Shown here: positions 8,640 through 60,293 of the stretch, one piece after another
Position numbering within the stretch: position 1 is the first letter of the stretch
Layout of the letters: every line of letters starts with the position of its first letter
Source: Botryllus schlosseri
Lineage: Eukaryota
Reading direction: 5' to 3'
Length of the DNA stretch: 64,000 nucleotides
Assembly: GCA_051294905.1 (NCBI GenBank)
Contig: CM119371.1
Coordinates: forward strand, 23,500,001 to 23,564,000
Notes under the pieces: model-generated
Seen by the model: only the letters and a program-made list of their open reading frames with translations
Told to the model about the DNA's origin: nothing
Databases searched by the model: none
Translations under genes and position numbers: made by a program

Positions 8640-8878
8640 ATGTTGTTTGTGATATTCATTGTGTTTTCGACTACAATGGTCATTCACACTGAACCGATTA
8701 AATATATTTTGATTCCTTATCTATGCCGACACCGCTTGTGCGGATTAAATGGTGTGGAGGAGCCTAGATAAACCTGTAAACCTTAGTAAGGGATTCAGGA
8801 GTCGACCTCGGTCGTACTCGAACCCGCAACCTACTGGTGTTGCAACTGTGGACCATACCACTACGCTATTTCGGCACC
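8640..8878 (-). mobile_element. tRNA-derived SINE, copy 1
   Basis: Minus strand has A-box-like TAGCGTAGTGG and B-box-like GGTTCGAGT, then a body (GTTTATCTAGGCTCCTCC) shared with 20368-20660 and 58445-58620. Confidence 0.7.
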
Positions 8879-19122: not shown

Positions 19123-20367
19123 CAAATTACTAAAAAAAAACATTTCTATAATCACGTGATGGTTTCACTGTCGTCGCCAAAGTAGTCAAAGATTATCTGA
19201 TCGCATGGGATTTATTGCGCATGTTGGATTATACTAATTAAAAAATATTTAGGTATTTACTCTCTTTTGAGATGGTTATCTCCACATTTTAGTTTATCTG
19301 CATGTAAAATTGAACCTATCCAGCTGTCGTCACCACATATAATAATATTATATAATACCGGAATAGAATCACGTGGGTTATATGCAGAATTACATCAATA
19401 AATGCTAAAATCCTTTATTTGATGAACGATAAATACTAAAAACGGAACTGATAAAAATGTGTTTACGTTGTGAGTTTCCGAATCTATATTGAGATGTTCA
19501 GTACAGCCGTTTTATTAATCAGTGTGTATTGATCAATAAATGTTTAATCATCAACCGATGATTTTTTAAACTATATCTCCAGGATTCAGGTTAGGCATAC
19601 GACGATAAGGTGTTTATTTACTTATCCAACATTGTACCATATTGTGATTCGTAAGTACAGCTAGGCCTATACCAGGTGAACCAGCATTATTTACAAGTAT
19701 TTTCGAAATGTCAAACGTAATAACCCCAATTGTGGATGTGCCGGACTTCCTTTAATCATATTTAACAGTTAAATGAAGGATAAAGTGGCGTTCCTGTCTC
19801 ATACCATATTTTACTGGGGTGGCCAAACTGAAGCTCGCCAAATTCACGCGGCTCATTGAGCCTTTGATTGCGACTATTGAATGATTGGACACGCATACAA
19901 TTGCCTACTTAGTCGAAAAGTTCACCTTCGCCGTAAATCAATGAATTTCATCGAATATCAACTTTTTGCGTTTAAGTTGTTAGAATCGATGTGTACAGCT
20001 TTATTCCCGGGTACTGTTCAAATGCCGACCTGATCACATCGTGTGATGGTCCTTTTATCTTGTGGGGTTGCTGGGGGAGTTATCTTAGTAACGCTAGGTA
20101 CACAAGCGTGCCTATGGTTAATTTCCGCGTCGGAATTTAATCTGGGCTCTTGATCCCCCGTCTCGCAGGACTAACTCAGTGAAAGACCAGATATCATATA
20201 CCAGAATCAACTTAAAAAAGAAACGATTGTAAAGTAATGGAAGGGAGATCAACTTTAACATCGAAACACTGTGACTTCGGGCACTAGGCCGAAATGGGCG
20301 CCGGTTAAGACACCGTAACTGGTCGTTTCAGCATCGCCCTATCTGTTTGTTGCGTCGCATTGTGTTG

Positions 20368-20660
20368 GTAGGTTGGTTTTGAGGTACTCATGGTGTTTGT
20401 CGACTACAGTGGTCATTTACAGCAGGCCGATATTCTTCATTTTTATTCTGTAGCTGCCGACTGATATATACGGCTTATATAGGCTTACATAGGCCTAGGC
20501 TTTTTGTAATACACCGCTTACGTGGAGGAGGTGGCGAGGAGGAGCCTATAATAATCGTCCACAACTTAGGAATTGAAATACTGAATTCGACCTCATTGGA
20601 CTCGGACCAGCTACTCCTTGGTGTTGCAGCCGCGGATTATACCACTGCGCTATCTCGCTA
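20368..20660 (-). mobile_element. tRNA-derived SINE, copy 2
   Basis: Colinear with 8640-8878. Confidence 0.65.
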
Positions 20661-21518
20661 CATTCGCATTGTGTCTTTGGTATCGCATAGTACATTGTGT
20701 GTGCCTCGATCGGATCGATATATATAATCCGACGGATATCATAACTCTACATTGTTGACGATTCCATATTAATTACCTCAAAAACTGCATATCATGATGT
20801 GTCCTTATTTTATTGCCAGCACACGACATAAGGTCGATGGCGACTGCATTTCACTAAAATGAGGCGTAGGACATTTATCGCAACTATACTGCAGCTTGAC
20901 GTAGCTTGACCTGTTAGGCTTTGCAAATTGCGAGTGAGCATAATACAGGTACCTCAGATATCTGCGATGTTTGCAGTTTGAGTTACCCAGAGCAATATTA
21001 CTTCTAAAATTGCGATGAAATATTAAAGCATATTCTGTCGCCAGCGCGCCCTCTTCTATGTCGGCGGGTCGGTTAAGATGAAGTTAAAACATCTAAATTC
21101 ACGACTGTGTTTTCTTGACGGCAACTAAAAGCGACTGGGCCACATTGGTTGATCATTGATCAATGATCGGTGCGGGTAATCAAGGTACTCAAGGAGCGGT
21201 ACGATACACTAATCAACATGGATTACAGGAGCAAGGCGTGTTTTTGCAGCTCAATAATGATATTCCCATTCATATCAATCGACATCTTCAAAATTTTTGT
21301 ATCAGTATCAGTATGTGTAAGCATTACCAATTTTGCTGCAGAAAAGGAGAGGTGAATGCGCTGCCTACACCTTTACTACCACTGACGACGTGAGGTGCTA
21401 TAGTAGAGTTAATTTGGATTGAGTCATATTCGTTGTATTATATTACTTACCTTTGATTACTTGTTTCGTTCAATTTTCTTTATAAATAGAAAGATTATTC
21501 CTTCAATCGTATCTAGAA

Positions 21519-38825: not shown

Positions 38826-40052
38826 GAGATAAGTATCGGGATGTGTTTGCTTCACATTTAAAGGTTGAAGTGTTGTAACAACTGGGGCCATATACGGGTC
38901 AGGCGCAACGGTTGCTATAGACATTTTGTAAAATTGTGTTTGTAGTAGTCCTTAATTTTATAGATAATGTCTACTTATGAAATCTAATTACTCGAGTAAT
39001 TTTCCAAAATAAAAATGACAAGACCGTGTTGGTACACGGAGGGCTCCATCGTTGAACGAGTGGGCATCGTGCAATTGCTATGATTTAGGAGAATTGTGGT
39101 TGGTCGTAGACGACGTACAGGACGGAGTGTTATCCTACAGTATTTGACCGTACCAATGTACCGCACGTCTTACTGTTCCCTCATTCTGAAGTTGGATTCG
39201 TATTGTTGCTATGTTATTCATTGATCGTATTGTATTTTCAATGTTGTTTTATCTCTGATATTTTCATGCGTACCGAAAAAGTTGTGATTCCGTCGCTTTT
39301 ATTGAAATGAGGCGAGCAATTATTAGTTCAGTTCGCCATATCGCACTGTGCATTGAACATGCATTTGAATTGCGTCTTTTGCGAAAGGCTAGGTTTCAGT
39401 TGTATAGGAATAATTCTGTCTATAATTTTCCCATCCTGGACAATTTAATATTCGTGAATGGAGGAAACCGGGTATCATGAATCCGTTTCCACACTCTGGC
39501 TCCGTAAATTCGTAAGTTCCGCGCATTTTATAATGGCAGAAAAAGAATTAGTAGAAGGCTTCGGTAACAAACGGGTCACTCTATGGCTCCGCAATCCAAC
39601 GGAGATTTTTTCCAATAATTGAATAAACTAATAAATATAGCGTCGCGTGGTAAACCAACAGTTAGCATCCACATTCACAGTATATATTGAAGATGCATAG
39701 CTCGCAAAATTTCAAAATGCATCGTTATGTTTGTACACCGAAAAGTGTGTTCGCCATTTATCTCGATATTGGGTGGATAAATTTCTAGTTCGTTTCAATT
39801 TATCTTCCAACGCTGCTGTGCACCTTCACAGGGCCCATATATATTGTTTTTAACTTGGAATATTTACGATCATCACAAATAGCCGTCTGTAAAGACAACA
39901 CAATCGTTCGGCATGATGTTTGTTAGGATATGCTCCGCAATCTGTGGCTACTGCTGGAATCAAATGGACTATGAAGCGATCAACGTCTTGATGCTAATGA
40001 ACAGTGTGACATCAACGTATACGACTGTAGTCTACTGGCAGTACGGTAACTG
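38826..40052 (+). repeat. Segmental duplication copy 1 (upstream region + 5' end of the XK-like gene)
   Basis: Direct, colinear, high-identity match to 48450-49700. Confidence 0.95.
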
Positions 40053-40891
40053 GTCGGAGAGAGTTTTGATTCCTCTTCTCACTATGTTTAGTATGCTATT
40101 CGGTTATGTTGTGACTTTGTGGGTGTCATTGTATTCTCTTGCGGTACGGTATTTCACGAAAGATGTCGCAAAATGGAGGGAGGACGTAGCCCAATATTAT
40201 GTGGTCGCGAAACTACAGCAAACTATTTTTCAGTCAATTCCCCAACTTTGTCTTCATCTGTATGCACAAATACCAAATCCCGAGCAAGTGGACTTATACA
40301 AATTTGGATTTTACCTACCTATTCTGGTATTCATCATGTCAATAATGGTCGGGCTGCATCTGCCGCATGTAGTATATCTGAAATATAGAGACATCCCTAG
40401 TTCATTTCGAGAATTTTTCTTCTCCTGCTCTTGTAGGGCTGCGTTGTTCGCTTCGAAATTGGTGTTCCTAATGCAAGTTACGTATGTTACGGGATGGTGG
40501 ACTTTTGCCTTCATAGCGGGATATTGGTTCGTGCGTTGGGTGATACTTGTCTGTTATAAAGAAAACGATAGTCGTGACTCCTTTGCGCAGTGATTTCAAG
40601 AGTGTTCAAACCACCAGACTGTTAGGCTGGTATTATATTTTTACACCGTTGCTGCCGTACGACGGCACTGAATCCTCCATTTACAAAGTGTGCTATTTCG
40701 CGGTAGATCAGCTCTTGCAAGCCGGCCTCTCGATCATATTTTGGGATGAAGCCTATTCCGAATACATCCCCGATTGCTTTATCGGCACTGAGAAAACACA
40801 ACTGATGAATTTCGTCGGTATTAGTCAATTGTTCGTGTCGGCGTCTATCCACGGAGTGCGATGTCGTCGTGCTCAGTACTTCACAGCGTAA
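39913..40891 (+). pseudogene. Intronless XK-related (Xkr scramblase family) membrane protein gene with a frameshift near 40580
   Basis: Multi-TM ORF 39913-40593 with QTIFQSIPQLCLHLY (XK motif ExxPQLxLQxY); hydrophobic continuation in the +1 frame (LLGWYYIF...VCYFAVDQLLQAGLSIIFW). Could be an intact gene with a sequence error. Confidence 0.7.
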
Positions 40892-40962
40892 TCATGTCAT
40901 GTCTTCACTGCAGCAACATCATATAAAAATCCGTATATCTGTGATAAGTTTGTGGCTATTTG

Positions 40963-41545
40963 CGGCAACCCTAATATCTCACCTCCGGCAACCCTAATAT
41001 CCCACCTCCACCAACCCTAATATCCCCCCTCCCCCAACCCTAATATCCAACCTCTGGCAACCCTAATATCCCACCTCCGGTAACCCTAATATCCTACCTC
41101 CGGGAACCCTAATATCCAACCTCCGGCAACCCTAATATCCAACCTCCGGCAACCCTAATATCCCACCTCCGGCAACCCTAATATCCCACCTCCGGCAACC
41201 CTAATATCCCACCTCCGGCAACCCTAATATCCCAACTCCACCAACCCTAATATCCCACTCCGGCAACCCTAATATCCCACCTCCGGCAACCGTAATATCC
41301 CACCTCCGGCAACCCTAATATACCACCTCCGGAAACCCTAATATCCCACCTCCGGCAACCCTAATATCCCACCTCCGGCAACCCTACTATCCCACTTCCG
41401 GCAACCCTACTATCCCACCTCCGGCAACCCTAATATCCCACCTCGGGCAACCCTAATATCCCACCTCCACCAACCCTAATATCCCACCTCCCCCAACCCT
41501 AATGTCCCTATCCCCGAACCCTGATGTCTCCCTCCCCCCTATACC
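40963..41545 (+). repeat. 23-bp tandem array GGCAACCCTAATATCCCACCTCC, about 25 copies
   Basis: Period seen directly (41171, 41194, 41217); each unit has one CCCTAA; degenerates toward 41570. Confidence 0.97.
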
Positions 41546-42028
41546 CTACCCAACTCTAACACCCCACCTCAACCTACAGTTGCAATAACGAGCAGACCAC
41601 GCGTGGTTGATATGTGAGCAATAACAATCGTTGATATATATTTTTCATCTGAATAAGTCACACACAATGTACAATGCGATAAGACCCAATGCGACGTCAT
41701 GAACACATACGAGGATGTCGAACGTCGCACGTCCGCGCCTCGCCAAGTCCATTCAACACTGAGGTTTGAGTTCGACGATCTACCGTGCGGACGTGTCTGA
41801 TTACGCGCACTAGGGTTGTTCAGAATTGACCGACTTTCAAAAAGTCCAGGTTTTCAGTCCGATTCCCGTGCCTTATACCTTAAAAACATATTCTGGCTAC
41901 TTTTTTTTGTAACTCGTCCCCTGCATCCGTGTGCACATTGAGCTGGAAGAATAGCAGCTGAAAATAGGGGATTCCCCTAAAATCTGAGTGTCACGATTTT
42001 ATCTAGCCAAGTTAAAGTGACATATAAC

Positions 42029-43244
42029 ATGGATTTATGCAGCTGTTGCGGTTTGGAGTGCTACAAAACCCCACTTTATAAGGCATTGCTAGTTCAGGAT
42101 ATCATTTCCATGTCCCACACTGTCTTAGAACTGCTCAAAACTACCTAAAACTGATAGTCATTTTGTTGGATCACATATCCTACACCCCTCAAACCTACTC
42201 GGCACTGTTCATCAATTTCCCGGATCCCCATGTGCAAATCAGAAAAGGTGTATGGATCGCAACTTTCTGGAACGACGATGAAGGAAGAAACATAAGAGAT
42301 ATGATACACAATGAGCTGAAAAGGAATCCAGAAGCCAAGCATTTCGAAACTATAACGATAGAACTCCAAGGCTTCCGGCCACACACTTGATACTACGTGG
42401 CGTTCCGGCCGAAACAACAAAGGCAACGGTAGAAAACACAGTCAATAGCTACGACTTCGGCAAAATAGTAAATATGACAAGGGTCTACCGAAGAAATACC
42501 AATATATACAACGGGTATACCAACCTGTGGGTTGAAGAGAGTAAGAAAGAAAAGCTACCATCGTACCTGATCGTAGACGGATATACATGCCACATAAAAA
42601 CGGCAGAAGAGGCCTACGCGAAGAAATGCTACCGCTGCAAATCAACTAATCATCTAATTGGAGAATGCCCAACCCCCGCCGAGCCGTACTGCAAAACGTG
42701 CAAAGCAAAGGGCCACGATACAGCAGTCTGTACCGAACCAAATGTACAAAAAGAAGCACCGCAGCCTAACAGACAAGATCATAACCTGCGCAACACGGCT
42801 GCGGAAAGCCAGCGGGACAGGCTAGACGCAGTAAGCCGCACAGAAATACCAGAAGAAACAGTACAGCAAAGGAAAGAAAACAGAAATGAGGACTGGTGGA
42901 ATGCAACGACAAAGAAAAACAAAAGCCAGAAGCAACAACCACCACCAATACCAATGAGACATCGGATAGTACTGAAACCGATAACAGGAACTAAACCAAA
43001 ATTCGTGCCGGAAGCACCGACATCACCACCCAACGAAGACAAGAAAGACACCAATGAAGAAAGCAAAATAACAGACGAAGACGAACTCGATAATGACTCG
43101 CTGATGTCTAGCGGAACACTGAAAAAACCAAGAGCCTCAACCAGCAGCGACGAAATAAGTAAACAAACCAAAGCAAAGAAGGTTGACAGTGAATCTGAAG
43201 AGTCGACAGGCTCCGACGAGACACTGAGCTATAACATCCAATAA
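42029..43244 (+). pseudogene. L1/Tx1 ORF1 (nucleic-acid-binding, two CCHC knuckles), frameshifted
   Basis: CYRCKSTNHLIGEC and CKTCKAKGHDTAVC; N-terminal part split over frames (42163-42390, 42387-43244). Confidence 0.85.
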
Positions 43245-46200
43245 CCATCAAAATTGTCAGTATCAACGTGGGATGTCAGGAAAACTCGAGGATATTGAAA
43301 AGTACATAAATGACTCAAAAATGGACTTTATGCTAGTGCAAGAAACTCACAGAGTGGATTATAACAAACTAAGCACCTGGACAGAAAAAAATGAGATATA
43401 CGATCTTCGTCAACTCAAAGACCAAGAGAAGACAATACGACGGCACCGCGATACTAGTGAGATCGGACTGGCAAGGTCAAATCCTTTCAAATGTAAACAT
43501 TATAGAAAATCGAGCCCAATGCCTATACGTCCAACTAGATCAATGCCCCATAGCAATAATCAACATATACGCCCCATCCGGGCTAGGAACAGAAGCCCGT
43601 CATAAAAGAGTCAACTTCCTGACTGAACTGAGTCGACATATCAATGAAATCGATATATCCAATATTATGGGAAAAGACTTTAACGTTGTACTAGACGAAA
43701 AAGATATCAAAGATAAAAGAAACTTCAAAAACAGAACTGGGACAAATATACTAAGAAAGATCATAGAAGAAACCCATATGATCGACATATTTAGGCACAA
43801 ATACCCAAAGAAGCAAATGTATACCCACGTAACCAGTTATAACTCGACAAGACTCGATAGAATATATATAACAAGAGAACTGTTAGATGACGTCTTCTTT
43901 GCAGGTCACGAAAATAATTTTGTCGCTGACCATATAAGCCCCACAATGGGAATAGAGATAAATCCCACTACCCGATGGCATAAAAGGAATTGGAAATGCA
44001 ACAATTACCTGCTGCGTGATGAAACGTATAAAGACATCATAGCCAATCTTGTCGACACAGAAGAGGCCACAATAGAGAAATACGAGTCGCTCCAAGAGTG
44101 GTGGGACACGCTAAAAGCAAAAATAGCGAATATAAGCAAGAGGCACGAAATTGATAAAAATAAGAACTGTGACGAGAATACCAAATACCAAAAACTAAAT
44201 GGTAAACTCAAAATGTTAACGAGATGCGATATTTTTAAAGGAGAAAGGAACCAGCAAAGAACTTTCTGGTCCCAATTCCAAAAGCGAAGAAAGCAAACTG
44301 AGATGAAAAAGCTACAGCTTGAAGACGGTTCAATAACAGCGGATAAACAAAAAATCGCTAACGAGATACAATCTTTCTACCTAGACTTATGGACGAGACA
44401 CAGAGAAAGCAATCAAGCCAATCAAGAAGATTACCTGGTATCCTACGAGCACGGCACAACACAGCAACAATCGAACGAATGGCAACCACCCGTACAAAGT
44501 GAAGAAATCCTGCAGGCACTCAAAACAATGAAAAGAGGAAAATCACCAGCACCAGACGGTCTCACGGTAGAGTTTTATCTCACAACATGGAAGACGGTAC
44601 GTACAACACTAACTCAGATAATAAATAACGCCATACTATTTGGAAAAATACCCAAAAGCTGGAATGGGGCAAAAGTCATATTAATTCACAAGGGAAAAGA
44701 GAATCACAAACTAAAAAATTGGAGACCAATATCTCTGCTCAACATAGATTATAAAATAATGGCAAAAATCCTAAATCACGGATTAACTCAAGAAATCCGG
44801 GACTCGATCAACAAATCTCAAAAAGCCGGAATACCAGGAAGAAAAATGGAAGCAGTCCTGAACAACATCAATGCTGCCCTACGATACCATGAAGACAAAC
44901 CGATACAAGGATATATCATGACGATAGACGCCAGCAAAGCCTTTGACAAGGTAGATCATCGCATGTTATTAAATATCCTAGAACGACTCCCAGTCCAACC
45001 CCAGACTATAAACGCGATTCGCGCAATATACAAAGAACCAACAGCCACAATTGAAATCAATGGCTACGAAGCAGCGACCATTCCATATACGAGGGGCATC
45101 CGACAAGGGTGTCCCCTCAGCATGACGCTCTACGCGATTAGTGCCGACCCATTGGCTCGTAAAATAGATCAAAACGACCTAATAAGTGGCATCCGCATAG
45201 GTAACATAAGACACAAAATAGACCAATTCGCGGACGACATCACGTTATACCTCAGCAACATCGAATCGATAACAGAAGCCTTTAATGAGTTCTCAAGTCT
45301 CTGTAGAATCACAGGACAAGACATTAATACCGAAAAGACCGAAATCCTAGCGCTCAACCCAACATCACAAACTCGCCTACGAGACTCCAGGCACGCACAC
45401 TATGCCAAACAGACAATCAAAATCATTGGGATATATTATGGTGATGATGCAAGGGAATCGAACCACGACAATCTCATCAAGGATATGAAGAAACATGCGG
45501 CCTATATCAAGTCCATAAAACTATCCTGGATAGGAAAAACGCAGGTGATCAAATCATATCTAATGACCAAGATAACATTTGTATATTACAATATTCAGAT
45601 TACCAAGAAGCAAGGAAAAGCACTCGAACGAATCATATATGACTTACTATGGTCCCCAGAAAAGATCGAATCGAAATCGAGAAACACTCTCATTAAGCCG
45701 AAAGAGCATGGTGGAATCGGATTCCCAGACGTAATCACTACAATACAAGCCAGGAATGTCAAACGCCTCCAAGAAATAGCGAACACCACCTCGCCAAACG
45801 AGATATGGCATGGAGAAGCTATCTATAATCTTGGAACCAAGGTGAAAACAATAAATAATAACCTCTACAGCAACTCCTTCCCACACAGATATACGCCAAC
45901 TAAGAACTGGACGGAAGAAAAGAGGATATATGAGCTACTACAGAACGACGACACACCAACTCGAGAATTAAACCAAAAAGAAATCTACGCCGCGCTAATC
46001 AAGATCAAAACGAAACATGGTGACCACGAGATCCCGAAGTGTACAGAAATATGGCTACATGAAGAACATATCAGACACCATATCACAAACCAGCAGAGGG
46101 TAACATCATACAGAATAAATGCCGAAGCCTATTTTACAGGAGCAAAAAAGACCAGGCCCGATGGACATGGAGAAATGGGCAAGCACCCAAAAACAACTGC

Positions 46201-46530
46201 TAATTCTGTCGAAAAGATCAAGACACTATGCACCATATTTTCACGATATGCCCTATTTATAGAAAACTCTTCTACAGTGTCAGAGCCGATCTAGAAGAAA
46301 AGCTGAGAACCGACATAAACGTATCCACCGTCGACCTCCTCCACAACACATATGTGGGCCAGCACAAGAAAATCGTAATCACAACCGTCGCAAATATGAA
46401 GATGAATGTGTGGAGATGGAAGAAGACCCTTGACATCACGAACGAATATGAAAATGACGCGAATACCAAGATCGAGCATATACGAAAAGACCTCCAGACA
46501 CAAACCAGACGACAATGGGACAGAGGATAA
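43245..46530 (+). pseudogene. L1/Tx1 ORF2 (AP endonuclease, reverse transcriptase), frameshifted
   Basis: SINV, VQETH, NIYAP, GKDFN, RLDRIY, DH (APE); KSPAPDG, NWRPISLLNIDYKI, IDASKAFDKVDH, GIRQGCPLS, QFADD (RT); HHIFTICP finger. Frameshifts near 43270, 43390 and about 46150-46200. Confidence 0.95.
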
Positions 46531-47237
46531 AGAAAACGCGATAGACTGCCGAACCACCGACGCGCGCGCAAACGAACTAAAAATCTACGATATCATAGAT
46601 ACGTAGAACGCGGATATATATATAATACGATGAAAATGATTATGTCAAAATCTTATTATTCATGCTATGTGCTAATTTGTACTACCGCCGAATCTTGTTT
46701 TTGACTACCTACGCATTATTATCTCTCTTTCACGCAATAAATAAATAAATGAATATAAACCCCCGACCCACCATCACCACGAATTACTAACCCTCCTCCC
46801 CAACCCCCTCCCCCCCCCCCCGAACAGGAAATCAATTAGGAGAAAGGACACCCAACCATCCAGTCACCACAAAGTCTATGATTATCAGAACCATACGGCA
46901 ACATAATATCAATTGGAGTCAGGCAATAATAGAGTTACAACCAACCACCCAAAAGTGGGTAGAAGAAAAAATTTGGAAAAACCCAAACAACAGGAGAAGC
47001 CGATTGACGCGCATCAATAGGTTTCGTCCCACAGTCACAATAAACCCTGAAAATTTCTAAACATATAGCTAGCGACCACACCCCCTTTTTGCTAAAGATG
47101 AATGTCATCTACCAAATAGCAAACATCCTTAAACCCAAACCAATACCGCCCCTAATAGCCGCTTGCCTATATATTGTTTGTCTGTTATGTACTGCACATT
47201 TACTTTATTTTAATAAACCACTAAAAGAACACTGAGC

Positions 47238-48449
47238 CGACCACGCAATCGTGATCACGTGATCTGATCACGCCGTGACTGCGTGATCTACGCATGCCCC
47301 GGCCTCCTTACAAGATTGACAAATCAGTTGATAATAACTAGGGCCATTTAAAGTCATATTTTTTTCTATGCATCAGTAAGTCGTGAAATCAATTTTAACG
47401 CAAAAACCGCATCCATATGGGGTATATTAAGAAAGTTATAAAGTCATATTTTTCTGGTTAGGTCATATTTGAGTTATAAAGTCATATTGTTGTATACTTT
47501 AAATAAAAAGTGCCAATTGAAGCAATTACGCACTAAGAAAGTAAGGCAATTTCTGCTTGAACAAAGGCAAACTGTAAGGTTAGCCTACATAGCATTACAG
47601 TCGCAGACCTACGAGGTCACACATTGCATTATGAGGTCACACATTGCATTGTGTTGCTACACAATCTGTTTTACTTCTGTGCACTGAAATGGGACGTCAT
47701 TTGACGTTCAGAGACTTCCACAAGTGAAAGAAATAGTCAACGCATGGGAAGCTCAAGGAGCGTCAAAGAGTCAGTGAACGATCCAAAGTTGACGAGTTAA
47801 CAGAAATATGCCTCCACTACAACAATATTTCAACAGAAATATGCCTCCATTACAACAATATTTCAAACTTGATACTGAAAATGGAAATTGAATAGTATAT
47901 TCATATTGAAATGAACCCGAATATTTTCGGCCGACACTCGTCAGGGGTAATCGTCAGCAACTAGTAGAGAATTGGATCAACAATCGTATCACAAAATATG
48001 ACGTCACCAGCATGAAGGAGAGAGCGTTCAATGTACTATTTTTAGGTGGTACACGAACACCTTTTGTTGACAGAGTTGTTTAAGTTTAAGTTGACAAAGT
48101 GGTTTAAAATAAAAATCGATGCGTATTACTGTTATGTTGTTTATGTTTTACTCTTCAGTTCCATGAGCGACGTTGGTTACATGTAAAAATACACGATTTT
48201 CGCATAAAGTCATATAAAGTCATATTTTCCCAAAAATAAAGTCATATAATTGATTTTTTAAGGTCATATAAAAATGGCCCTAATAATAACATTATTAGTT
48301 TAATATTTCATATTAATACTTGTTAATACACTTGATTACAAAATTTCCGAGGGCGGAATTCACCGAGGGCCGAGTTCATCGAGGGCCGGGTTCACCGAGG
48401 TCCGAGTTTGTAAGGCCGGGTTCACCGAGGTTAGAGTTCACCGGCAACC
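47238..48449 (+). mobile_element. Right arm of a Merlin-like non-autonomous DNA element (host of the L1)
   Basis: Reverse-complement match to 58633 to about 58830; ends ...GTTCACCGGCAACC; 41590-41619 matches the adjoining part of the same family. Confidence 0.75.
47339..48282. mobile_element. hAT MITE, AAAGTCATA-motif family
   Basis: TAGGGCCATTT / AAATGGCCCTA; TSD ATAATAAC. Confidence 0.92.
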
Positions 48450-49700
48450 GAGATAAGTACCGGGATGTGTTTGCTTCGCATTTAAAGGTTGAAGTGTTGT
48501 AACAACTGGGGCCAAATACTGGTCAGGCGCAACGGTTGCTAGAGACATTTTGTAAAATTGTTTTTGTAGTAGTCCTTAATTTTCTAGATAATGTCTACTT
48601 ATGAAATCTAGTTACTCGAGTAATTTTCCAAAATAAAAATGAGAAGACCGTGTTGGTGGTACACAGAGGGCTCCATCGTTGAACGGGTGGGCATCGTGCA
48701 ATTGCTATGATTTAGGAGAATTGTGGTTGGTCATAGGCGACGTACAGGACGGAGTGTTATGCTACAGTATTTGACCGTACCAATGTACCGCACTTCTTAC
48801 TGCTCCCTCATTCTGAAGTTGGATTCGTATTGTTGCTATGTTATTAATTGATCGCATTGTATTTTCAATGTTGTTTTATCTCTGATATTTTCATGCATAC
48901 CGAAAAAGTTGTGATTCCGTCGCTTTTATTCAAATGAGGCGAGCAATTATTAGTTCAGTTCACCATAGATGTATGTTAACCGCACCATCGCGCTGTGCTT
49001 TGAACATGCATTTAAATTGCGTCTTTTTGCGAAAGGCTAGGTTTCAGTTGTATGGAAATAATTCTGTCTATAATTTTCCCATCCTGGACTATTTAATCAT
49101 TGATGAATGGAGGAAACAGGGTACATGAATCCGTTTCCACATCTGGCTCCGTAAATTTCCAAGTTCCGCGCATTTGATATTGGCAGAAAAAACTTCAGTA
49201 GAAGGCTTCGGTAACAAACGGATCACTCCATGACTCCGCAATCCAACGGAGATTTTTTTCAATAATTGAATATACTAATATGTATGGCGTCGCGTGGTAA
49301 ACCAACAGTAAGCGTCCACATTCACAGTATATATTGAAGATGCCCAGTTCGCAAAATCTTAAAATGCATCGTTATGTTTTGTACACCGAAAAGTGTCTTC
49401 GCCCAACTATCTAGATATTGTGTGGATAAATTTCTAGTTCGTTTCAATTTATCTTCCAACGCTGCTGCTCACCTTCACAGAGCCCATATATATTGCTTTA
49501 TTTTGGAATATTTACGATTATCACAGATAACCGTCTTTAAAGACAACACAATCGTTCGGCATGATGTTTTTTAGGATATGCTCCGCAATTTGTGGCTTCT
49601 GCTGGAATCAAAGGGACTGTGAAGCGATCAACGTCTTGATGCTAATGAACAGTGTGACATCAACGTATACGACTGTAGTCCACTGGCAGTACGGTGACTG
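48450..49700 (+). repeat. Segmental duplication copy 2, carrying a truncated XK-like 5' fragment (49561-49700)
   Basis: MMFFRICSAICGFCWNQRDCEAINVLMLMNSVTSTYTTVVHWQYG is nearly identical to the 39913 ORF start; cut at 49700 by a MITE. Confidence 0.93.
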
Positions 49701-49936: not shown

Positions 49937-50921
49937 CATAACCTGATTACGACTGCGTACACACACCACCTGATCTACTACATATTAATCACATTTGTGT
50001 TAATTTAATTGTAAACGAATTGGCAATAATGCCGTTGTAAAAAATGAAACGAACAAACGAACGAATGCCCGAAGAAAGAAACTGAAAACAGTCCGTATCA
50101 TCAGGTTTCATCTTCTGATGAGCTGGATAAATAACCCTGCGGCCTTTTCTTTTCAACACCCTGGAGAAATAAAATGAAAATTACGATTAATAGCTAAGAC
50201 ATTCGTACTGCGAAAATGGCAGAGGTAGCGAGTAACGAATGACTCCTACATTTTTTTCGCCCATACTTACTAAAATGGATTTGATTCAGAACTATTTCCA
50301 CTCAGGTTTTCAAGTTTTAGTATTATATTTTTTAATATTATATGACTAGAGAACTGACTTCAATCGCCACTTCTACTTGATTATCAAGATCAACGATGAC
50401 TACTTCAGCAATCTTTGAAAACAGCCACTAACACAAAAAGAATTCTTGACTAAAATTTCTTCACATTCTGTCAAAAATGATCAGTTCAACAATCTAAATG
50501 AATCAGTTATTTGGCAGCTAGTTGGAGAGATATATACTCAAGTCTAGAAAGTGGAATGATACTCTGCCTGGAAAGCTGAAGACCTAACAATATTGTGTAC
50601 AGAGAACAAAACATTTGAGTGGCGGCACTGGTATAGACATAAACAAATTATTAGAATTGACAGCAAGATAACCAGCAAGACATTAAAATGAGAATTAGTG
50701 CAGTTTCTTTGGCTGTAGTGATACTCAGCCAGTAATTGACCTAGCAGAGAGCAAAACGTTGCAAAAAAAGCGAGCGAAACCTCCGACAAATGATACGATA
50801 AAACATTAGAATCGACAGTCTTACTAGAAGCAGAATAACAATCGTGAGGGGTTAGAAAACAGAAGCCCGGGAAGTGACCATCAGAAATTACTGCATACTG
50901 GCCGAACAAATCCATGACCAC

Positions 50922-53900
50922 TAGGGTTGTCCATAATTTGGAAAATCTCAAAATGTATGCGTATCCATGTCTCATTTTATAGATTATAGATAAAAAAACG
51001 TCAATGAACCTGCAATAAGCTCACAGGAAAGTCGTTAACATTTGTCTAAATGCGTTTGAAAGTAGCTGCCGTAGAGTGGGCGTGTCAGCGACCATAGAAC
51101 GGCAAGCAGACTAGTAATCACGAAATCACGGCGCTTGATTGGCTAATCTGCTATGCTTCAATGATCACGACGGTGGCGGCTTGCTGATCAGCTGGTCAAG
51201 GAGTCGGCTAACGGCGGCATAGGCGCCGACTTACGCGGTTACGAGGTGGCGCAGCCACCTCGTGAGCATATTTGTGAGGTGGTGGCCACCTCGTACAAAA
51301 TGCTCAAACGCCAAAGTGATTTGTGACCAGTAATTAGTAATCAGGCGAATCGATGCGGCCTCGTTAGAGACGTCTTCGATTTCGATACGCGCATGTGCCA
51401 GGCTCCTAGCCACGGGGTTTAGGGGGTCGAACTGCCCTATTTGAAACGCGAAATCCCGTCATTTTGAAATGATCATTCTAACTCTAATACCCAGTTGCAA
51501 TTATCAGTGTTCCGCGCGGCTGATTTGCGAGAAACGTGTTGTCAATTAGGGAGAAAAGTCTGTTATGATCTCCCGCTGAGATGGTTGCGAAATTAGGTCA
51601 TTCATTCCCGTGCGCGTGGCAATCGTCGCTAGCCTGATTTATCGCGTATCGAGCTAGCCTGGTTCCGCCGGCTTGAACAATCGCATCTGCAATAGGCCCA
51701 GTTCACACTAATCATCGCTTGCCTGCGCAATCGCATCTACATTGGCCGCTTCGGCCTGGTGTGCACGATATCATAGCTGGCCCACACAATAGCATCTGCA
51801 ATAGGCCTGGTGCGAAAGCTATCATTGCTGGCCTAACTATCGCGTCTCGGGCATAACATGCTTTGGCTCCTATCTCTCGCTGGTTTTGAGACAATGCGGT
51901 CGAGTTTACGCTAATTAGTGATTGTTTTATCATATTGATTAAAAAGCGACATCAAGAAACTGAGTAAAATCGATTTGCTGCAAACAGACTTTAATGTGCG
52001 TAATTGATTCCCGCTAATACTTAAACGTAACGATCAGAAGATGTGTATCATGGCTCGAATTCTGAAAGGCGACAAAGGTTTGAAATCGTTGCCATCAAGT
52101 TCAGATTTCCGAAAACTGTCGCCGAGACTGCGTAATACGCGCGCGTATTTAATTGTTCACCAAATATCAGGGACTCGCTAATTGACAGCACTCCCGGACT
52201 CTTTGGCAAGCTTATCATACGCCTAAAATCGTCAATACGAAGAGATTATATGATCGCCATTTACACATGTACTTAACCCGAATTGATTTGATGCTATATT
52301 GGTAAATTTGAAAAAAATTCAAGTCACCCTAATTTTTCGACTGGCTACGCGCCTAGCGTGTACTGAGAAGCACCATCCTAGATCTCCTCTTCCGACCAGG
52401 CGCCCAAATAGACGTTCTCCTTTTCTGAAATCTAAATTATGCGCGCCCAGCCCATATTCGTTTACAAAACCATTCATGAGCTAGCTAGCTTCGTAATAGT
52501 CTTGGTAATCGGAGCGCGAAATTGGAGGGTGTGTTGGTGTGTGCCGGCAAATTAGAATTCATTTCTGCGCAGATTCGTTTCTCTAACAAGGCTTTGCCAG
52601 TTACGTTAATCGGGAAATGCAGCAATACAGCCTAAACACCGATATAATGAGAAAACAATTGTCGCGACGAAAGCTACTCAATATGGTGTCAGACTCAAAA
52701 CCCATTCGTGGCGATTCTGGTCAGAATGCACGCTTTCTCATTTGCCATCAGCCCATCATCCATATTACTTGTTATCTACTGGATACATTCGTACTCCGAA
52801 ATTGTCGCATAAAGTCATTTTTCAGTGTTCCTTTCATTATTAACGTACAGTAGGCCACGCCATGCCATTGTCAAATATTGATGCATCACAAGATTCTGGG
52901 TGGCACAAATTCTGATTTTATTCGATTCGTTTGAACAACGATAAACTTGATTGCTGGATGTAGCCTACTCTTTATCGAGAACAACAATATCGAATATTAA
53001 TTAAACTATTAGGCATTAGGTGGACAGCGGATTTCTATTGATAAGATCGCGGCATGCGCCCGGAAGTGGAATTAACTCTAGCCCAGGGGTGGCCAACCTG
53101 CGGCCGTAGAAGCAAATTTGTGCGGCTATCAACACGTAATTTATTTGGTATTAGTGGCGGCCGTCGACATGCAAATTGAATTTGCGAATTGACCAATGTA
53201 CTCCCGGAATGCTTCGCGAAAGTAAATCGGGAAATGCATCAATGCCGCCCAAATCGCTGTTATAATCAGCAAACAATTGCCGCGATGCGAGTTGGTCAAC
53301 GCGAAGCAAGAAATCGCAATAGACAATTACTGATTGAAATATTCGAGAGTTGTCGTGTGTTACTTGCAAGGCCAGTGCGTATTGTATTTCGTTACTCAAC
53401 AGGACGAATGGCGCGTGAATAACATTGATGCAACTGCAGATCATCAGTGACGTGAATTCTGACTTTTGTTCGATGCATTCCGTCGGTAGCGCAGGCCGCA
53501 GTTACACTTTCGAATGATCGTACCGTTTCAAGATGCCATTTAATAATCGACTGCATGGTTTGATATTAATGAGTGCATGGCCGATATTAAAACGTCACGC
53601 GAATGGTTTAACTCTGCACGTACGCCAGCGGCATGTAGTAAAGTACGTTTTCGTGCCACGATGACGTCATCGATATGTAACAATTATGACGTCACAAGAC
53701 TTCGCCACCTCGTAAAAAAATAAAAGTCGGCGCCTATGAACGGCGGTGATTCTGTAAGCGCATTGTAGGTTGGTCCGCAGATAATGATTCAAGCTTAATT
53801 CAGAACATGTCGAGTGACGAAATACATGATGAACAAAGAACAGCTGCTTCACAAAAACTTCAAATACATGACTTGATGGCTTATTGTGAAGGCAACCGTT

Positions 53901-55044
53901 GTAGCCTGTATGCCTTGTTTTCATCGAGGGAAAGCAGAAAAATACGAGAAGAAACATTGCAAAGGTGCTTATGCAAGTGGCGAACGAACTTCTAGTTTCA
54001 GGGGGGATGTTCCATGATTGAATAGAAATATAAAACTTGACATTGACACTACTGTGTCTGATCTTATCTTGTCGTGGGAGCCTATATAATTGAAGTCTTA
54101 AAAGCTGTACGGGCTGGATGAATCAGCCATTTATGCTTGGCACTTGTCACATTCTTGCAGCATAATGAATCATACCCGCGAGTGCTGTCTAAGTCCTCAA
54201 TGATGCCCCGGAAGAAGGTTTAAAGGCAAGCATAGACTATGCTGGTATGACCAGTAAAAAGACTGTTCGCTTGCATTGTTTAGCATGTCCATAATGAATC
54301 TTGGATCATTACCGGCTGCATCACGACTAATGCTTGAATCAAACCAGACATGGAATGCATTGAAGCGTTACGGTAGTTACATTTCTTCAGAGTCCCAATG
54401 CAAGCTACCTCGTCGGCCCACATATCTTCTGAGCATACAGGATTGTGTCCAGAATCCATCTCGCATGGTGTGCTGCACCAGTTTGGCGATAACTAATATA
54501 CTTTACCTGCACTGCACCCAGAAAAGCAGGACCACTTGGCGTAATCTCAATCATATCAGATAGGTATTTCTGGGATCTATAAGTTCACAAGCATTCGCTG
54601 TTTCACCCTTGTCATGCCCGCAAGAGGGTATTGTTGTTCTGAACCTATCGTTATCTAGTTTTAACACTAAAAATTCAATGACCAAGTGTCTCATTTTAGT
54701 ATTTAATCACCAACGTACAATGCGCTTGCAGAATCATAATTGCCGTTAGCGTACTTCTTGAACTAGTAGAAGCACACAATCAGCAAGCCGCCGTGGTCGT
54801 TATCATTGAAGCATAGCTGATTAACCAATCAAGAGACGTGATTTCGCGATTACTAGTCTTTTCGCCGTTCTATGGTCGCTAACCCGCCCACTCTATGGCA
54901 GCTACTTTCAAACGCATTTAGACAAATGTTAACGACTTTCCTGTAAGCTTATTGCAGGTTCATTGACGTTTTTTATCAATAATCTACAGAATGAGACATG
55001 GATACGCATATATTTTGAGATTTTCCAAATTTTGGACAACCCTA
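50922..55044 (-). mobile_element. hATm-type DNA transposon with about 260-bp TIRs
   Basis: TIRs 50922 to about 51185 and about 54780-55044, starting TAGGGTTGTCCA; near-TSD ATGACCAC / ATGATCAC; internal transposase remnant. Confidence 0.88.
54080..54620 (-). pseudogene. hATm transposase remnant
   Basis: Minus strand SYRQTGAAHHARWILDTILYAQKI and SSISRDAAGND resemble hATm PGAxHHARWM.K.IY..K and AP.ND motifs. Confidence 0.7.
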
Positions 55045-55052
55045 ATGATCAC

Positions 55053-58334: not shown

Positions 58335-58444
58335 CTATGGCGGAATAAAAGTTTCGGATAAGTTCTAAAACGAACACAATTTTCCACACAAAAGTCAATT
58401 GCCACACGAAATGCCAAATGCTACGGTCCCATTTTACAAGGTAT

Positions 58445-58620
58445 GGCGAGGTAACGTAGTGGTACGTTCCATTATAGCTAAACACCAATGAATTGCGGGT
58501 TCGAGCCTGACACGTCGACTCCATAATTCCTACGGAAGTGTTGGCCGTTTATCTAGGCTCCTCCTCGCCATCTGATCCGCATAGCCATGTCTTAAAAAGC
58601 CTAGGAGTGGGCCGTGCTAT
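58445..58620 (+). mobile_element. tRNA-derived SINE, copy 3
   Basis: TAACGTAGTGG A box, GGTTCGAGCC B box, shared body GTTTATCTAGGCTCCTCC. Confidence 0.65.
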
Positions 58621-58632
58621 AAGTGGGCAGAT

Positions 58633-59498
58633 GGTTGCCGATGAACTCGGCACTTGGTGAGTTCGGCCCTCGGGAAATTTTGTAATGAAGTGTATTAACA
58701 GCTATTAATATGAATTATTAAACTAATAATAGTATTATCAAGTGATTCGTCAATCTTGTAAGGAGGTCAGGGCATCCGTAGATCACGCAGTCACGGCGTG
58801 ATTAGATCACGGATTGCGTAGCCGCGGGAAATAACGCAGCGCTCATATACCGACCACGCGCGGTCTGCTTGAAACCGATGGCGTGAGTGACGGGCCTGTA
58901 TCGTGTAAGTTTTGAGAAGATGGATCTTGGCGTTGTATGTGAGATCGAAACTGTGGAAGATCAAGCGGCGCTTCTTCGTTTATCGATCACGACAAGCCAG
59001 TGTTCCTCATCAACAAATGTTTCGCATGATCACGTCAATATAAATTATTTTTTGCCTTTGGAGAGACGATTCCACTCTGGGGTTAGGGTGTCTCGATAAC
59101 AGGGTTGAAGGATCCCAAGATTACGAGATCTACCGCGAGCCACGACACTTTTAAATTTCCTTTTTGATACTGTTCATTCATATTAAATGCATTTCTAATG
59201 CGAAGGTGTTCTAGTGCCAATTCCTCCAAGGGCCGAGTTCACCAAGTGAAGAGCGTCGCGTTATTTCCCACGATTACGCAATCTGTGATCTAATCACGCC
59301 GTGACTGTGTGATCTATGCATGCCCTGACCGCCGTACAACATTGACAACCACTCAAAGTGCCAAGTTCACCGGTAAACATTCCAGTAACCAATCATGGTG
59401 ACCGGTACCCGTACCAATACGAGATCTACCACGGCCGAATTCACCAAGTGCCGAGTTTGTGCGGCCGAATTCACTAAGTGCCGAGTTCACTGGTAATC
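58633..59498. mobile_element. Merlin-like non-autonomous TIR element
   Basis: GGTTGCCGATGAACTCGGCACTT / AAGTGCCGAGTTCACTGGTAATC; perfect 8-bp TSD GGGCAGAT; GG start and repeat-containing TIRs. Confidence 0.8.
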
Positions 59499-60293
59499 GG
59501 GCAGATACGGAATGATAATAATAAGAACCGGTCAGGTGTAAAATGACCAGTGTAGTCGAACCACCACCATGAACACCACAAACAAACAAACAAACATCTA
59601 ACATGGAAAAGAAATTACCTTTACAGCCTTTGACAAACACAGTTACCATTGAAATCAGCAATTTAGGTCTTATTCGAAATCAGAATAACAACTGTTTTAG
59701 CGGACATATCAAATCAAATGTTGGAAAGTTCATGTAAATTAGCCCAAAATATTATTTTACTGTGACCATATTCTATCAATATGGTCTGGCTAGCCAAATT
59801 CTCTGGGCCAACATAAACAAGCTGCGTTTGGTTTCAACGATTAATAATCTTGTCACTGGATTCGAGGTATAATTGCACTCAAATATCAAATTTTGCTCCA
59901 TTAATCAACATCAAGTTGAAAATGTCCATTCTTGCACCAACTTTTATAAAATCACGAATCAGACTCATTCCATTATAATGTAGCAAATTTTCTGACATTT
60001 GTAATGCATACCCTCAGAATTGTCCAATAATTACAAATGTTGTTCTTTTTTCAATTCTGGGTACATTAAAAAAATTAGATTGAAAAATTTCCAGCGGTTC
60101 AAAAGATAATGCAATTCAAATTTATCATGTCACTAGGTGGCGCTGCACGCAAAACTCTCTAAAATCCATATTTTTTGCTGTAATGATGGTGGAGAATCAA
60201 TTAAAATGTCTAATTATACAATTTTGGGGCCAAGGAATTCAAAAAAGTCAACATTTTCGCTCTAAACTCGAAGAAAAAAAAGTTACGGACTAA

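Follow-up and report, generated by a model that had tools for sequence, protein, structure and literature searches.

An L1-clade LINE nested in an abundant Merlin-like element of Botryllus schlosseri, set against transposon-targeting Tx1 retrotransposons

The targeting of other transposons by L1/Tx1 retrotransposons is a strategy already published for frogs and crocodilians (PMC4494074). In the excerpts of that study at hand, a LINE is regarded as target-specific when more than 20% of its flanks share one kind of sequence, and transposons are the preferred targets of the crocodilian elements Tx1-Mar (Mariner-N4_AMi), Tx1-9_AMi (Harbinger elements), Tx1-8_Crp and Tx1-4_AMi (both LTR elements). 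Tx1-clade elements are characterized by a type I ORF1, with RRM and/or zf-CCHC domains instead of Transposase_22 (PMC5203782), and the endonuclease of Tx1L is described, in the consulted part of PMC1950540, as having a long hairpin loop with an extended tip. Merlin elements, according to the consulted part of PMC8101967, have inverted ends of 24-462 bp starting with GG and an 8- or 9-bp target duplication. Here we compare with these systems a LINE found within a Merlin-like element in a window of 64,000 nt (the whole stretch of DNA analyzed) of the tunicate Botryllus schlosseri (Table 1).

Table 1. Coordinates of the nested elements and of the short host copy in the window.
Feature	Position	Strand	Basis or remark
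Host left part: array (40963-41508), spacer, shared core from 41591	40954..41614	+	Left boundary provisional
TGAGC, upstream copy of probable target-site duplication	41615..41619	+	GTGAG at 41614 fits splice-donor consensus GTRAG
Filler of 14 nt, or decayed remainder of longer (~20-nt) duplication	41620..41633	+	7-mer CAATCGT in common with first 25 nt behind 3′ TGAGC
24-mer resembling a spliced leader, with TGAATAAG at its end; candidate retroelement head (5′)	41634..41657	+	Likeness to Ciona leader
Head region, probably high-copy	41658..41773	+	Diverged relative at 20664-20726 (-); bin depth
5′ UTR piece, 36-37 nt	41774..41810	+	Upstream of ORF1 in LINE-family contigs; start estimated from side length
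High-copy insertion, 3′-shortened, starting TAGGG, presumably hAT-like	41811..42234	+	Contigs; comparison with intact ORF1
ORF1 remnant, residues 78-412 of family protein	42235..43244	+	Two CCHC knuckles; one frameshift near 42366
ORF2: APE endonuclease, RT, zf-RVT-type C terminus	43245..46530	+	Frameshifts near 43400 and 46130; start approximate
LINE 3′ region, ~700 nt	46531..47232	+	No poly(A) tail; AATAAA in two stretches; contigs similar in depth to the LINE overlap as far as 47228
TGAGC, downstream copy; marks putative first nick	47233..47237	+	Comparison with empty copy
Host core right of LINE	47238..47338	+	92% over 79 nt to 58811-58733
hAT-like element, 944 bp, within host	47339..48282		Duplication of 8 bp, ATAATAAC; inverted ends of 11 bp without mismatch
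Right end of host, with terminal inverted repeat (ending CC) and subterminal repeats of 16 bp	48283..48449	+	Comparison of repeats and ends
Complete short host copy	58633..59498		Empty site ~58845 on minus strand; two inverted core copies; sits in SINE-like repeat

The sequence-only reading had proposed that an L1 block was inserted in a DNA element, with TGAGC as the candidate target-site duplication. The nesting was borne out, since the LINE ends at 47232, the host is contiguous in the empty short copy and TGAGC is present on both sides. Host sequence left of the insertion (41591-41619) is identical to the empty copy at 25 of 29 nt and picks up again at 47233-47338, and a second empty host is given by an independent contig (run X12) that links 41598 to 47282 via GATATGTGAGC. 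TGAGC occurs at 38 sites on the plus strand of the window, giving a chance of about 0.003 for 5 possible positions. The duplication is probably of 5 nt, possibly of about 20; as for the 14 nt at 41620-41633, at least 7 shared nt were reached by 59 of 5000 random 14-mers. The proposed loss of some 16 bp of target stood only as an observation: 16 nt of the empty copy are indeed absent, but variation among host copies is a better reading than target loss by the LINE, because these nucleotides lie downstream of the 3′ TGAGC copy. A hairpin just behind TGAGC in the empty copy was considered as the cause of this loss and rejected for its weak fold (z -1.67; 11 of 200 shuffles). The empty host of run X12 likewise has a deletion behind TGAGC. 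The insertion site is not the TTAAAA of L1, and the LINE lacks a poly(A) tail.

The LINE belongs to the L1 clade, with a CCHC ORF1, an APE-RT ORF2 and three frameshifts, and this copy is now dead. Its ORF1 matches an intact family ORF1 (P0174, 412 aa) at 91% over 308 aa, beginning only at residue 78 (position 42235); residues 1-77 were not found in 41620-42234, where 473 of 500 random stretches score equally well. Two CCHC motifs are recognizable in ORF1 by sequence, with Pfam zf-CCHC matches below the cut-off and no Transposase_22 match, and no RRM was detected, the single-sequence structure model (mean pLDDT 37.8) being too poor for use. This is a type I (CCHC) ORF1, a type found also in lineages other than Tx1. 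ORF2 combines the N-terminal APE endonuclease and the L1-type RT (RVT_1, E 9.5e-32) that define the L1 group, and its relatives P0001-P0003 contain Exo_endo_phos, RVT_1 and a weak zf-RVT. Two other candidates were ruled out: an ATG at 41699 as the start of ORF1, as the intact ORF1 has a different N terminus, and a second retroelement at 46750-47232, which is spanned by overlapping contigs of LINE-like depth.

In a midpoint-rooted RT tree of the window sequence and 119 of 120 matches, built with neither outgroup nor labelled Tx1 reference, the LINE and three unnamed proteins make up a separate clade (support 1.0), apart from lizard/fish and echinoderm groups. The endonuclease loop aligns without gaps to the R1Bm loop chimera, is 2 residues shorter than that of L1 and 4 residues shorter than the Tx1L loop chimera, and has the same length in P0001-P0003; it is thus not Tx1L-like, although its length does not exclude specificity, being equal to that of the sequence-specific R1Bm. 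The 80 metagenome loci compared, of 426 related ones, show 23-34% protein identity, none above 34%, and at a threshold of E 1e-3 none of the 80 is similar to the array, to the arms of the host, to the head or to the 3′ region. None of 87 viral candidates was confirmed; exact DNA patterns gave no match for the LINE 3′ end in genome_contigs, nor for the host core and array in viral_contigs. A protein-cluster look-up of 10 relatives returned no names, atlas searches gave generic RT and CCHC clusters only, and the single Rfam match in the window was at chance level and outside the nested region.

Taken at first as one L1 block, 41620-47232 proved to be a mosaic: it contains another insertion at 41811-42234, ORF1 codons 1-77 are gone, and 41620-41773 is not tied to the LINE. 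Contigs of runs X12 and X13 join 41810 directly to 42235. The intervening insertion, which we take to be hAT-like from its TAGGG end, is skipped by contigs in two of the three contig runs and has a depth far above that of the LINE body. One of its contigs continues 342 nt beyond 42237, and we infer that its right part and the start of the LINE's ORF1 were deleted together. Further upstream, the 24-mer agrees with the spliced leader of Ciona at 12 of 16 nt, the last 8 being identical (chance about 0.004 per 80-nt stretch); this leader is Ciona's and not Botryllus's own, and no spliced leader of B. schlosseri was found in the literature.

It is possible, though we hold it tentatively and short of probable, that 41620-41773 is a piece of a separate high-copy leader-headed retroelement and not the LINE's own 5′ end, having been joined to it by template switching as the LINE inserted, or by another insertion at this very position. 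LINE-family contigs lose their match at about 41774 in both runs despite having 126 and 394 nt before the ORF1 start, but a deletion in the UTR of the window copy would yield an equally short match, and the contig rows listed are part of the total. Depth in the 41655-41945 bin far exceeds that of the following one, but the excess could stem from the hAT-like end in the same bin. A relative of the head about 21 kb off (78% over 63 nt, E 4.8e-7) has no ORF1 behind it and points to the same reading, which would be compatible with any view of targeting. This relative is interrupted by a SINE-like repeat, a further case of nesting. The 30 nt preceding the head resemble the relative no more than expected by chance (1226 of 3000), and this likeness was discarded. 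The main use of the locus is to caution that one copy does not suffice for reading the 5′ boundary of such a block.

The host was described as a GG-terminated element at 40954-48449 with a 23-bp array on its left side. The array was confirmed (40963-41508; 23.8 copies, 92% matches), and it is not a telomere tract, since the 21 CCCTAA occurrences within it are not in tandem, nor does the hexamer stand in tandem elsewhere in the window. The right end does carry GG at 48449, but the GG on the array side (40954) is not an inverted end: only 5 of 13 nt match the right end, which agrees with the 58633 copy at 12 of 13, and no 8-9-bp direct repeat abuts both ends of the composite. The short copy has inverted ends matching at 19 of 23 nt, one starting GG and the other GA, and an exact 8-bp duplication GGGCAGAT, in keeping with the proposed Merlin-like affiliation. 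Other superfamilies with 8-bp duplications, such as hAT, P and MuDR, are also conceivable. No ORF of at least 150 aa is present in either host copy; a Merlin-type autonomous partner, with the same GGTTGCC end, would be expected to encode a DDE_Tnp_IS1595 transposase.

LINE and host differ strongly in abundance. The LINE body has 1.1 times (run X2) and 2.1 times (run X12) the depth of the left flank, while the array bins and left host part reach a summed contig depth, a rough guide rather than a copy number, of 67-556 times the LINE median in three contig runs. By contig depth, therefore, the LINE has few copies, and the host is commoner by a factor of tens to hundreds. A raw-read run (X18) placed 78 reads, left 27 of 30 bins empty and was uninformative. 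Within the window, the host family occupies 1,797 of 64,000 nt and 32% of the sequence has a second copy. Four other nestings were found: a hAT-like element in the host (47330 and 48283 of the host are joined in each of the three contig runs), a very high-copy repeat in that hAT-like element, a hAT-like element in the LINE, and the host in a SINE-like repeat. The very high-copy repeat extends from 47886 to about 48072. With a third of the window repeated and at least four other nestings, chance nesting is cheap.

On balance, therefore, we consider it somewhat more probable than not that the LINE nested opportunistically in an abundant host that is no dedicated target, as favoured by host abundance and the nesting rate in the window; the endonuclease loop and the RT clade were counted on the same side. 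The LINE, of the L1 clade, low in copy number and with a type I (CCHC) ORF1, would have entered one copy of the abundant Merlin-like non-autonomous element by target-primed reverse transcription (TPRT), with a nick just before TGAGC that duplicated 5 nt, possibly about 20; it would have landed there because the host, like other repeats, is everywhere in the genome. Later, a hAT-like element may have jumped into the LINE 5′ UTR, a deletion may then have removed ORF1 codons 1-77, what was left of the UTR and the right part of that element, and a second hAT-like element may have entered the right arm of the host. Against chance nesting, a sequence-specific element might be expected to lack a TTAAAA site and a poly(A) tail, as this one does, a family restricted to one target could likewise be low in copy number, and the one flank of the LINE family that was read does not lie in unrelated sequence.

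The missing TTAAAA site and poly(A) tail, together with a clean 3′ junction in a conserved core contiguous in two empty copies, a probable duplication of possibly about 20 nt and the frog and crocodilian precedents, are consistent with an endonuclease that would recognize the TGAGC region of the host core, the abundant element offering the LINE a safe place to land in the manner of Tx1D for Tx1L. We consider this unlikely: it relies on a single insertion in a host that is abundant, in a window where nesting is usual. Among the rows listed of the contig alignment (joints, 15 of 299; between-letter rows, 12 of 204; loose ends, 24 of 2231), neither 41619 nor 47232 is marked by a joint or a loose end, and none of these 15 joints links a LINE end to the host. 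Upstream of the 20.7-kb head relative, which possibly belongs to another family, no host sequence was found (its score is reached by 1030 of 3000 random stretches). A contig of the family's 3′ end (run X13) halts 3 letters past 47228 without continuing through TGAGC, weakly suggesting more than one continuation of the LINE family, but it is equally explicable by tail variants.

A spliced-leader-headed LINE might alternatively prefer splice-donor-like motifs, so that the target would be the motif and not the transposon, this host copy having happened to carry GTGAG. The leader-like 24-mer begins 14 nt inside the 5′ junction, the nick would fall within GTGAG (the chance of GTRAG within 2 nt of a given point is about 0.006), and the empty host of run X12 also has GTGAG. 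However, the 24-mer is not tied to the LINE, whose family contigs match just 36-37 nt before 41810, no published Botryllus leader was found, the 58-kb empty copy has ATGAG, and the motif test was post hoc. We consider this preference quite improbable. We give equally little credence to a combination of both ideas, in which an L1 lineage of tunicate type, distinct from the vertebrate groups described so far, would carry a leader head and home in one orientation to a splice-donor-like site in the Merlin-like core, its mobile safe harbour. If true, Tx1L/Tx1D would have a Merlin-based counterpart in an invertebrate, which may have arisen from a preference for leader donors.

At present the locus amounts to an ordinary dead LINE among piled-up insertions, and its likeness to known systems is partial. 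Human L1 ORF2p (PDB 8sxt, E 6e-76), the best solved relative, shares the APE and RT architecture. The LINE differs in that its ORF1 is of the CCHC type and not Transposase_22, it lacks both a poly(A) tail and a TTAAAA site, and in the RT tree it branches apart from the lizard and fish proteins. The host resembles the Merlin superfamily, as far as the consulted part of PMC8101967 describes it, in its GG start, 8-bp duplication, imperfect inverted ends and internal tandem repeats, but neither copy has a transposase, one end of the complete copy begins GA, the inverted ends were measured over 23 nt only, and the array-bearing copy has no recognizable left inverted end. Crocodilian targets were demonstrated from many flanks, while the present case offers a single flank, with a Merlin-like target in an invertebrate. 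With Xenopus Tx1L/Tx1D, in the available excerpts of PMC4494074 and PMC1950540, the locus shares an APE-type L1-group LINE within a non-autonomous DNA transposon and a target duplication; it differs in that Tx1D is of the piggyBac type, the loop is shorter than that of Tx1L and one insertion is at hand. The pairing itself is genuine: a LINE of the L1 clade, with type I ORF1, lies within a non-autonomous element that is Merlin-like. Targeting, if true, would extend the transposon-targeting L1/Tx1 elements to an invertebrate chordate and a Merlin-like target, and would provide a sequence-specific APE endonuclease with a short hairpin loop for comparison with Tx1L and R1Bm. Since Tx1-clade LINEs have repeatedly adopted other transposons as targets, in the cases given in the consulted part of PMC4494074, it would be one more such case.

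The L1-group LINE, as we classify it from its predicted proteins, splits an otherwise contiguous host element, as a sequence-only reading had proposed, and two empty sites bear this out: the host copy at 58.8 kb and a contig of sequencing run X12. Of the 29 nt upstream of 41620, 25 agree with the 58.8-kb copy on its minus strand, host sequence picks up again at 47233, and TGAGC flanks the inserted block on either side (probability by chance about 0.003). The X12 contig links 41598 to 47282 via GATATGTGAGC, and this empty host has its own deletion behind that motif. The proposed loss of 16 bp of target stood in part: 16 nt present in the empty copy are absent, but they lie downstream of the 3' TGAGC, so that under the standard model they were not removed by target truncation in the same event, and variation of the host copy is the simpler reading. 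Since the stretch of 14 nt that follows the 5' TGAGC and the sequence behind the 3' TGAGC have a 7-mer in common (59/5000 random 14-mers), the target may originally have been duplicated over about 20 nt, one copy having changed since.

The inserted block, previously taken as one LINE, proved to be a mosaic by contig joints, depth and the ORF1 match. Four of 23 listed runs were aligned to 40200-48900, namely three contig runs and one raw Hi-C run, whose 78 reads there were uninformative. Depth in each of the three contig runs drops steeply near 42236 and climbs back near 47184. Contigs of X12 and X13 connect 41810 directly to 42235, and one contig carrying the skipped element continues for 342 nt beyond 42237. 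The skipped 41811-42234 is thus the left portion of a separate high-copy element beginning TAGGG, which we take to be hAT-like. An inverted pair, 91% identical, begins TAGGGTTG as the 41811 insertion does and was read as the ends of another hAT-like element. The ORF1 search returned two of 20 candidates, including one intact 412-aa protein of the LINE family (91% across 308 residues; the window has a frameshift near 42366); the match begins only at residue 78, position 42235, and residues 1-77 were absent from 41620-42234. One deletion would have taken the right part of the 41811 element, the remaining LINE UTR and ORF1 codons 1-77. Family contigs hold 126 and 394 nt ahead of the ORF1 start and match the window for only 36-37 nt upstream of 41810, so the head of the block (41620-41773) cannot be attributed to the LINE from contigs. 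A relative of the head lies at 20664-20726 (78%), and the 20-kb SINE-like copy, which has an 11-bp duplication ACACAATGCGA, splits a relative of 41637-41785.

A 24-mer from 41634 in the head ends in the same 8 nt as the spliced leader of Ciona (12/16 overall; chance about 0.004 per 80 nt; Ciona sequence from PMC1488885). The leader of B. schlosseri itself was not found in the published literature searched. This resemblance, together with an inferred nick inside the splice-donor-like motif GTGAG (by a post hoc motif test, chance about 0.006), would suit a leader-headed LINE that prefers such motifs; we hold this unlikely, and the 58-kb empty host copy has ATGAG at the position of GTGAG.

The ORF2 of the LINE carries an RT domain (E 9.5e-32); among solved structures, human L1 ORF2p is its closest relative (E 6e-76). 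Against its nearest database relatives, three unnamed proteins (54, 41 and 37%), it breaks into three segments, and frameshifts lie near 43400 and 46130. Divergence between the family contigs and the window is 2.1-2.6% in coding sequence and 4.6-4.9% towards the 3' end, so the family is fairly young, but the window copy is dead. Contigs of LINE-like depth overlap as far as 47228 in the 3' region (~700 nt), which also holds a short open frame after a C-rich tract.

The reading we somewhat favor is that the LINE entered one copy of an abundant Merlin-like element by opportunity, and that further insertions and a deletion came later. Because the host is abundant and nesting is frequent in the window, a single such insertion is the chance expectation: 32% of the window has a second copy within it, the host family makes up 2.8%, and at least four further nestings occur. 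Summed contig depth, which by the tool's own warning is no copy number, was 1.1x (X2) and 2.1x (X12) that of the left flank for the LINE, with array bins at 67-556x and the right-core bin at 63-746x the LINE median. Specific targeting of the host by the LINE is unlikely in our judgment, one insertion in an abundant repeat being what chance predicts, but the LINE 3' end has no poly(A) tail, the insertion site has no TTAAAA, and precedents exist, since PMC4494074 describes transposon-targeting Tx1 elements in frogs and crocodilians. No invertebrate or Merlin case was found in the literature covered (titles and abstract openings, with few subscription papers or Repbase Reports), nor a second LINE copy in the public collections searched. 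Among the 15/299 joints, 12/204 between-letter rows, 24/2231 loose ends and 24 pieces listed, none joined a LINE end to any flank; as these are only part of the joints and loose ends, this does not argue against LINE-host joints. The X13 3'-end contig stops 3 letters beyond 47228, short of TGAGC, which fits several continuations but tail variants as well.

Features of the window discussed in the text
Feature	Position	Remarks
Composite host copy	40954-48449	
Complete host copy	58633-59498	inverted ends matching at 19/23 nt; exact 8-bp duplication
23-bp array	40963-41508	23.8 copies
Inserted block	41620-47232	mosaic
Short open frame	46800-46980	about 60 codons
944-bp element	host right arm	perfect 11-bp inverted ends; 8-bp duplication
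Extremely high-copy repeat	47886-48072	inside 944-bp element; highest depth of any bin in each contig run
Tandem duplication	38826-40052; 48450-49700	
Two hydrophobic ORFs	39883-40891	236 and 115 aa; in duplicated unit
Inverted pair	50915-51188; 54779-55051	
SINE-like repeat, three copies	20363-20655 (-); 8643-8876; 58444-58605 + 59500-59596	tRNA-type boxes; label based on the sequence itself

On the left side of the host, the expected CCCTAA-bearing array was confirmed. CCCTAA occurs 21 times in it and never as a tandem hexamer, so the array is a minisatellite and a telomere tract was rejected. Its unit includes CGGCAACC, which corresponds in direct orientation to the final 8 nt of the host right inverted end; 14 of the 15 sites of this 8-mer in the window are in the array, which may have grown from a terminal sequence. 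Of the two GG termini claimed for the composite, the right end fits the host family (12/13 nt) but the left GG does not (5/13), and no direct repeat adjoins both ends. Beyond 48449 the sequence repeats 38826-40052 with 91.5% identity over 1254 nt, so the composite lies where the two units of an old tandem duplication meet, and that duplication may have erased the original left flank of the composite. The second duplicate begins at the next base after the host right inverted end, and the transposon may have given rise to the duplication or may mark it; at 49700 this duplicate is interrupted by unrelated sequence. The ORFs in the duplicated unit probably represent a membrane-protein gene; Pfam gave no match above cut-off, and they may resemble XK-related proteins. 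The 944-bp element is missing from contigs of all three contig runs, and hundreds of loose ends fall at 47886, where the very high-copy repeat inside it begins.

Merlin elements are described, in PMC8101967, with GG-terminated ends of 24-462 bp, duplications of 8 or 9 bp, imperfect ends and internal tandem repeats. The complete host copy has an exact 8-bp duplication and inverted ends that agree at 19/23 nt, with GG at one end and GA at the other, so 'Merlin-like' is a fair label for an element in which no transposase is present. An RT tree (FastTree, midpoint root) built from the window plus 119 of 120 hits, one being left out for short coverage, places the LINE in a group with the three unnamed proteins that are its nearest relatives (support 1.0), apart from lizard and fish proteins and from an echinoderm group. 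Its endonuclease hairpin loop equals that of R1Bm in length, being 2 residues shorter than in L1 and 4 shorter than in Tx1L (loop background from PMC1950540). ORF1 has two CCHC motifs and gave no match to Transposase_22; the type I ORF1 pattern is linked to the Tx1 clade, among others, in PMC5203782, and it is in ORF1 type that this LINE, a candidate member of the Tx1 clade, is like Tx1-type elements.
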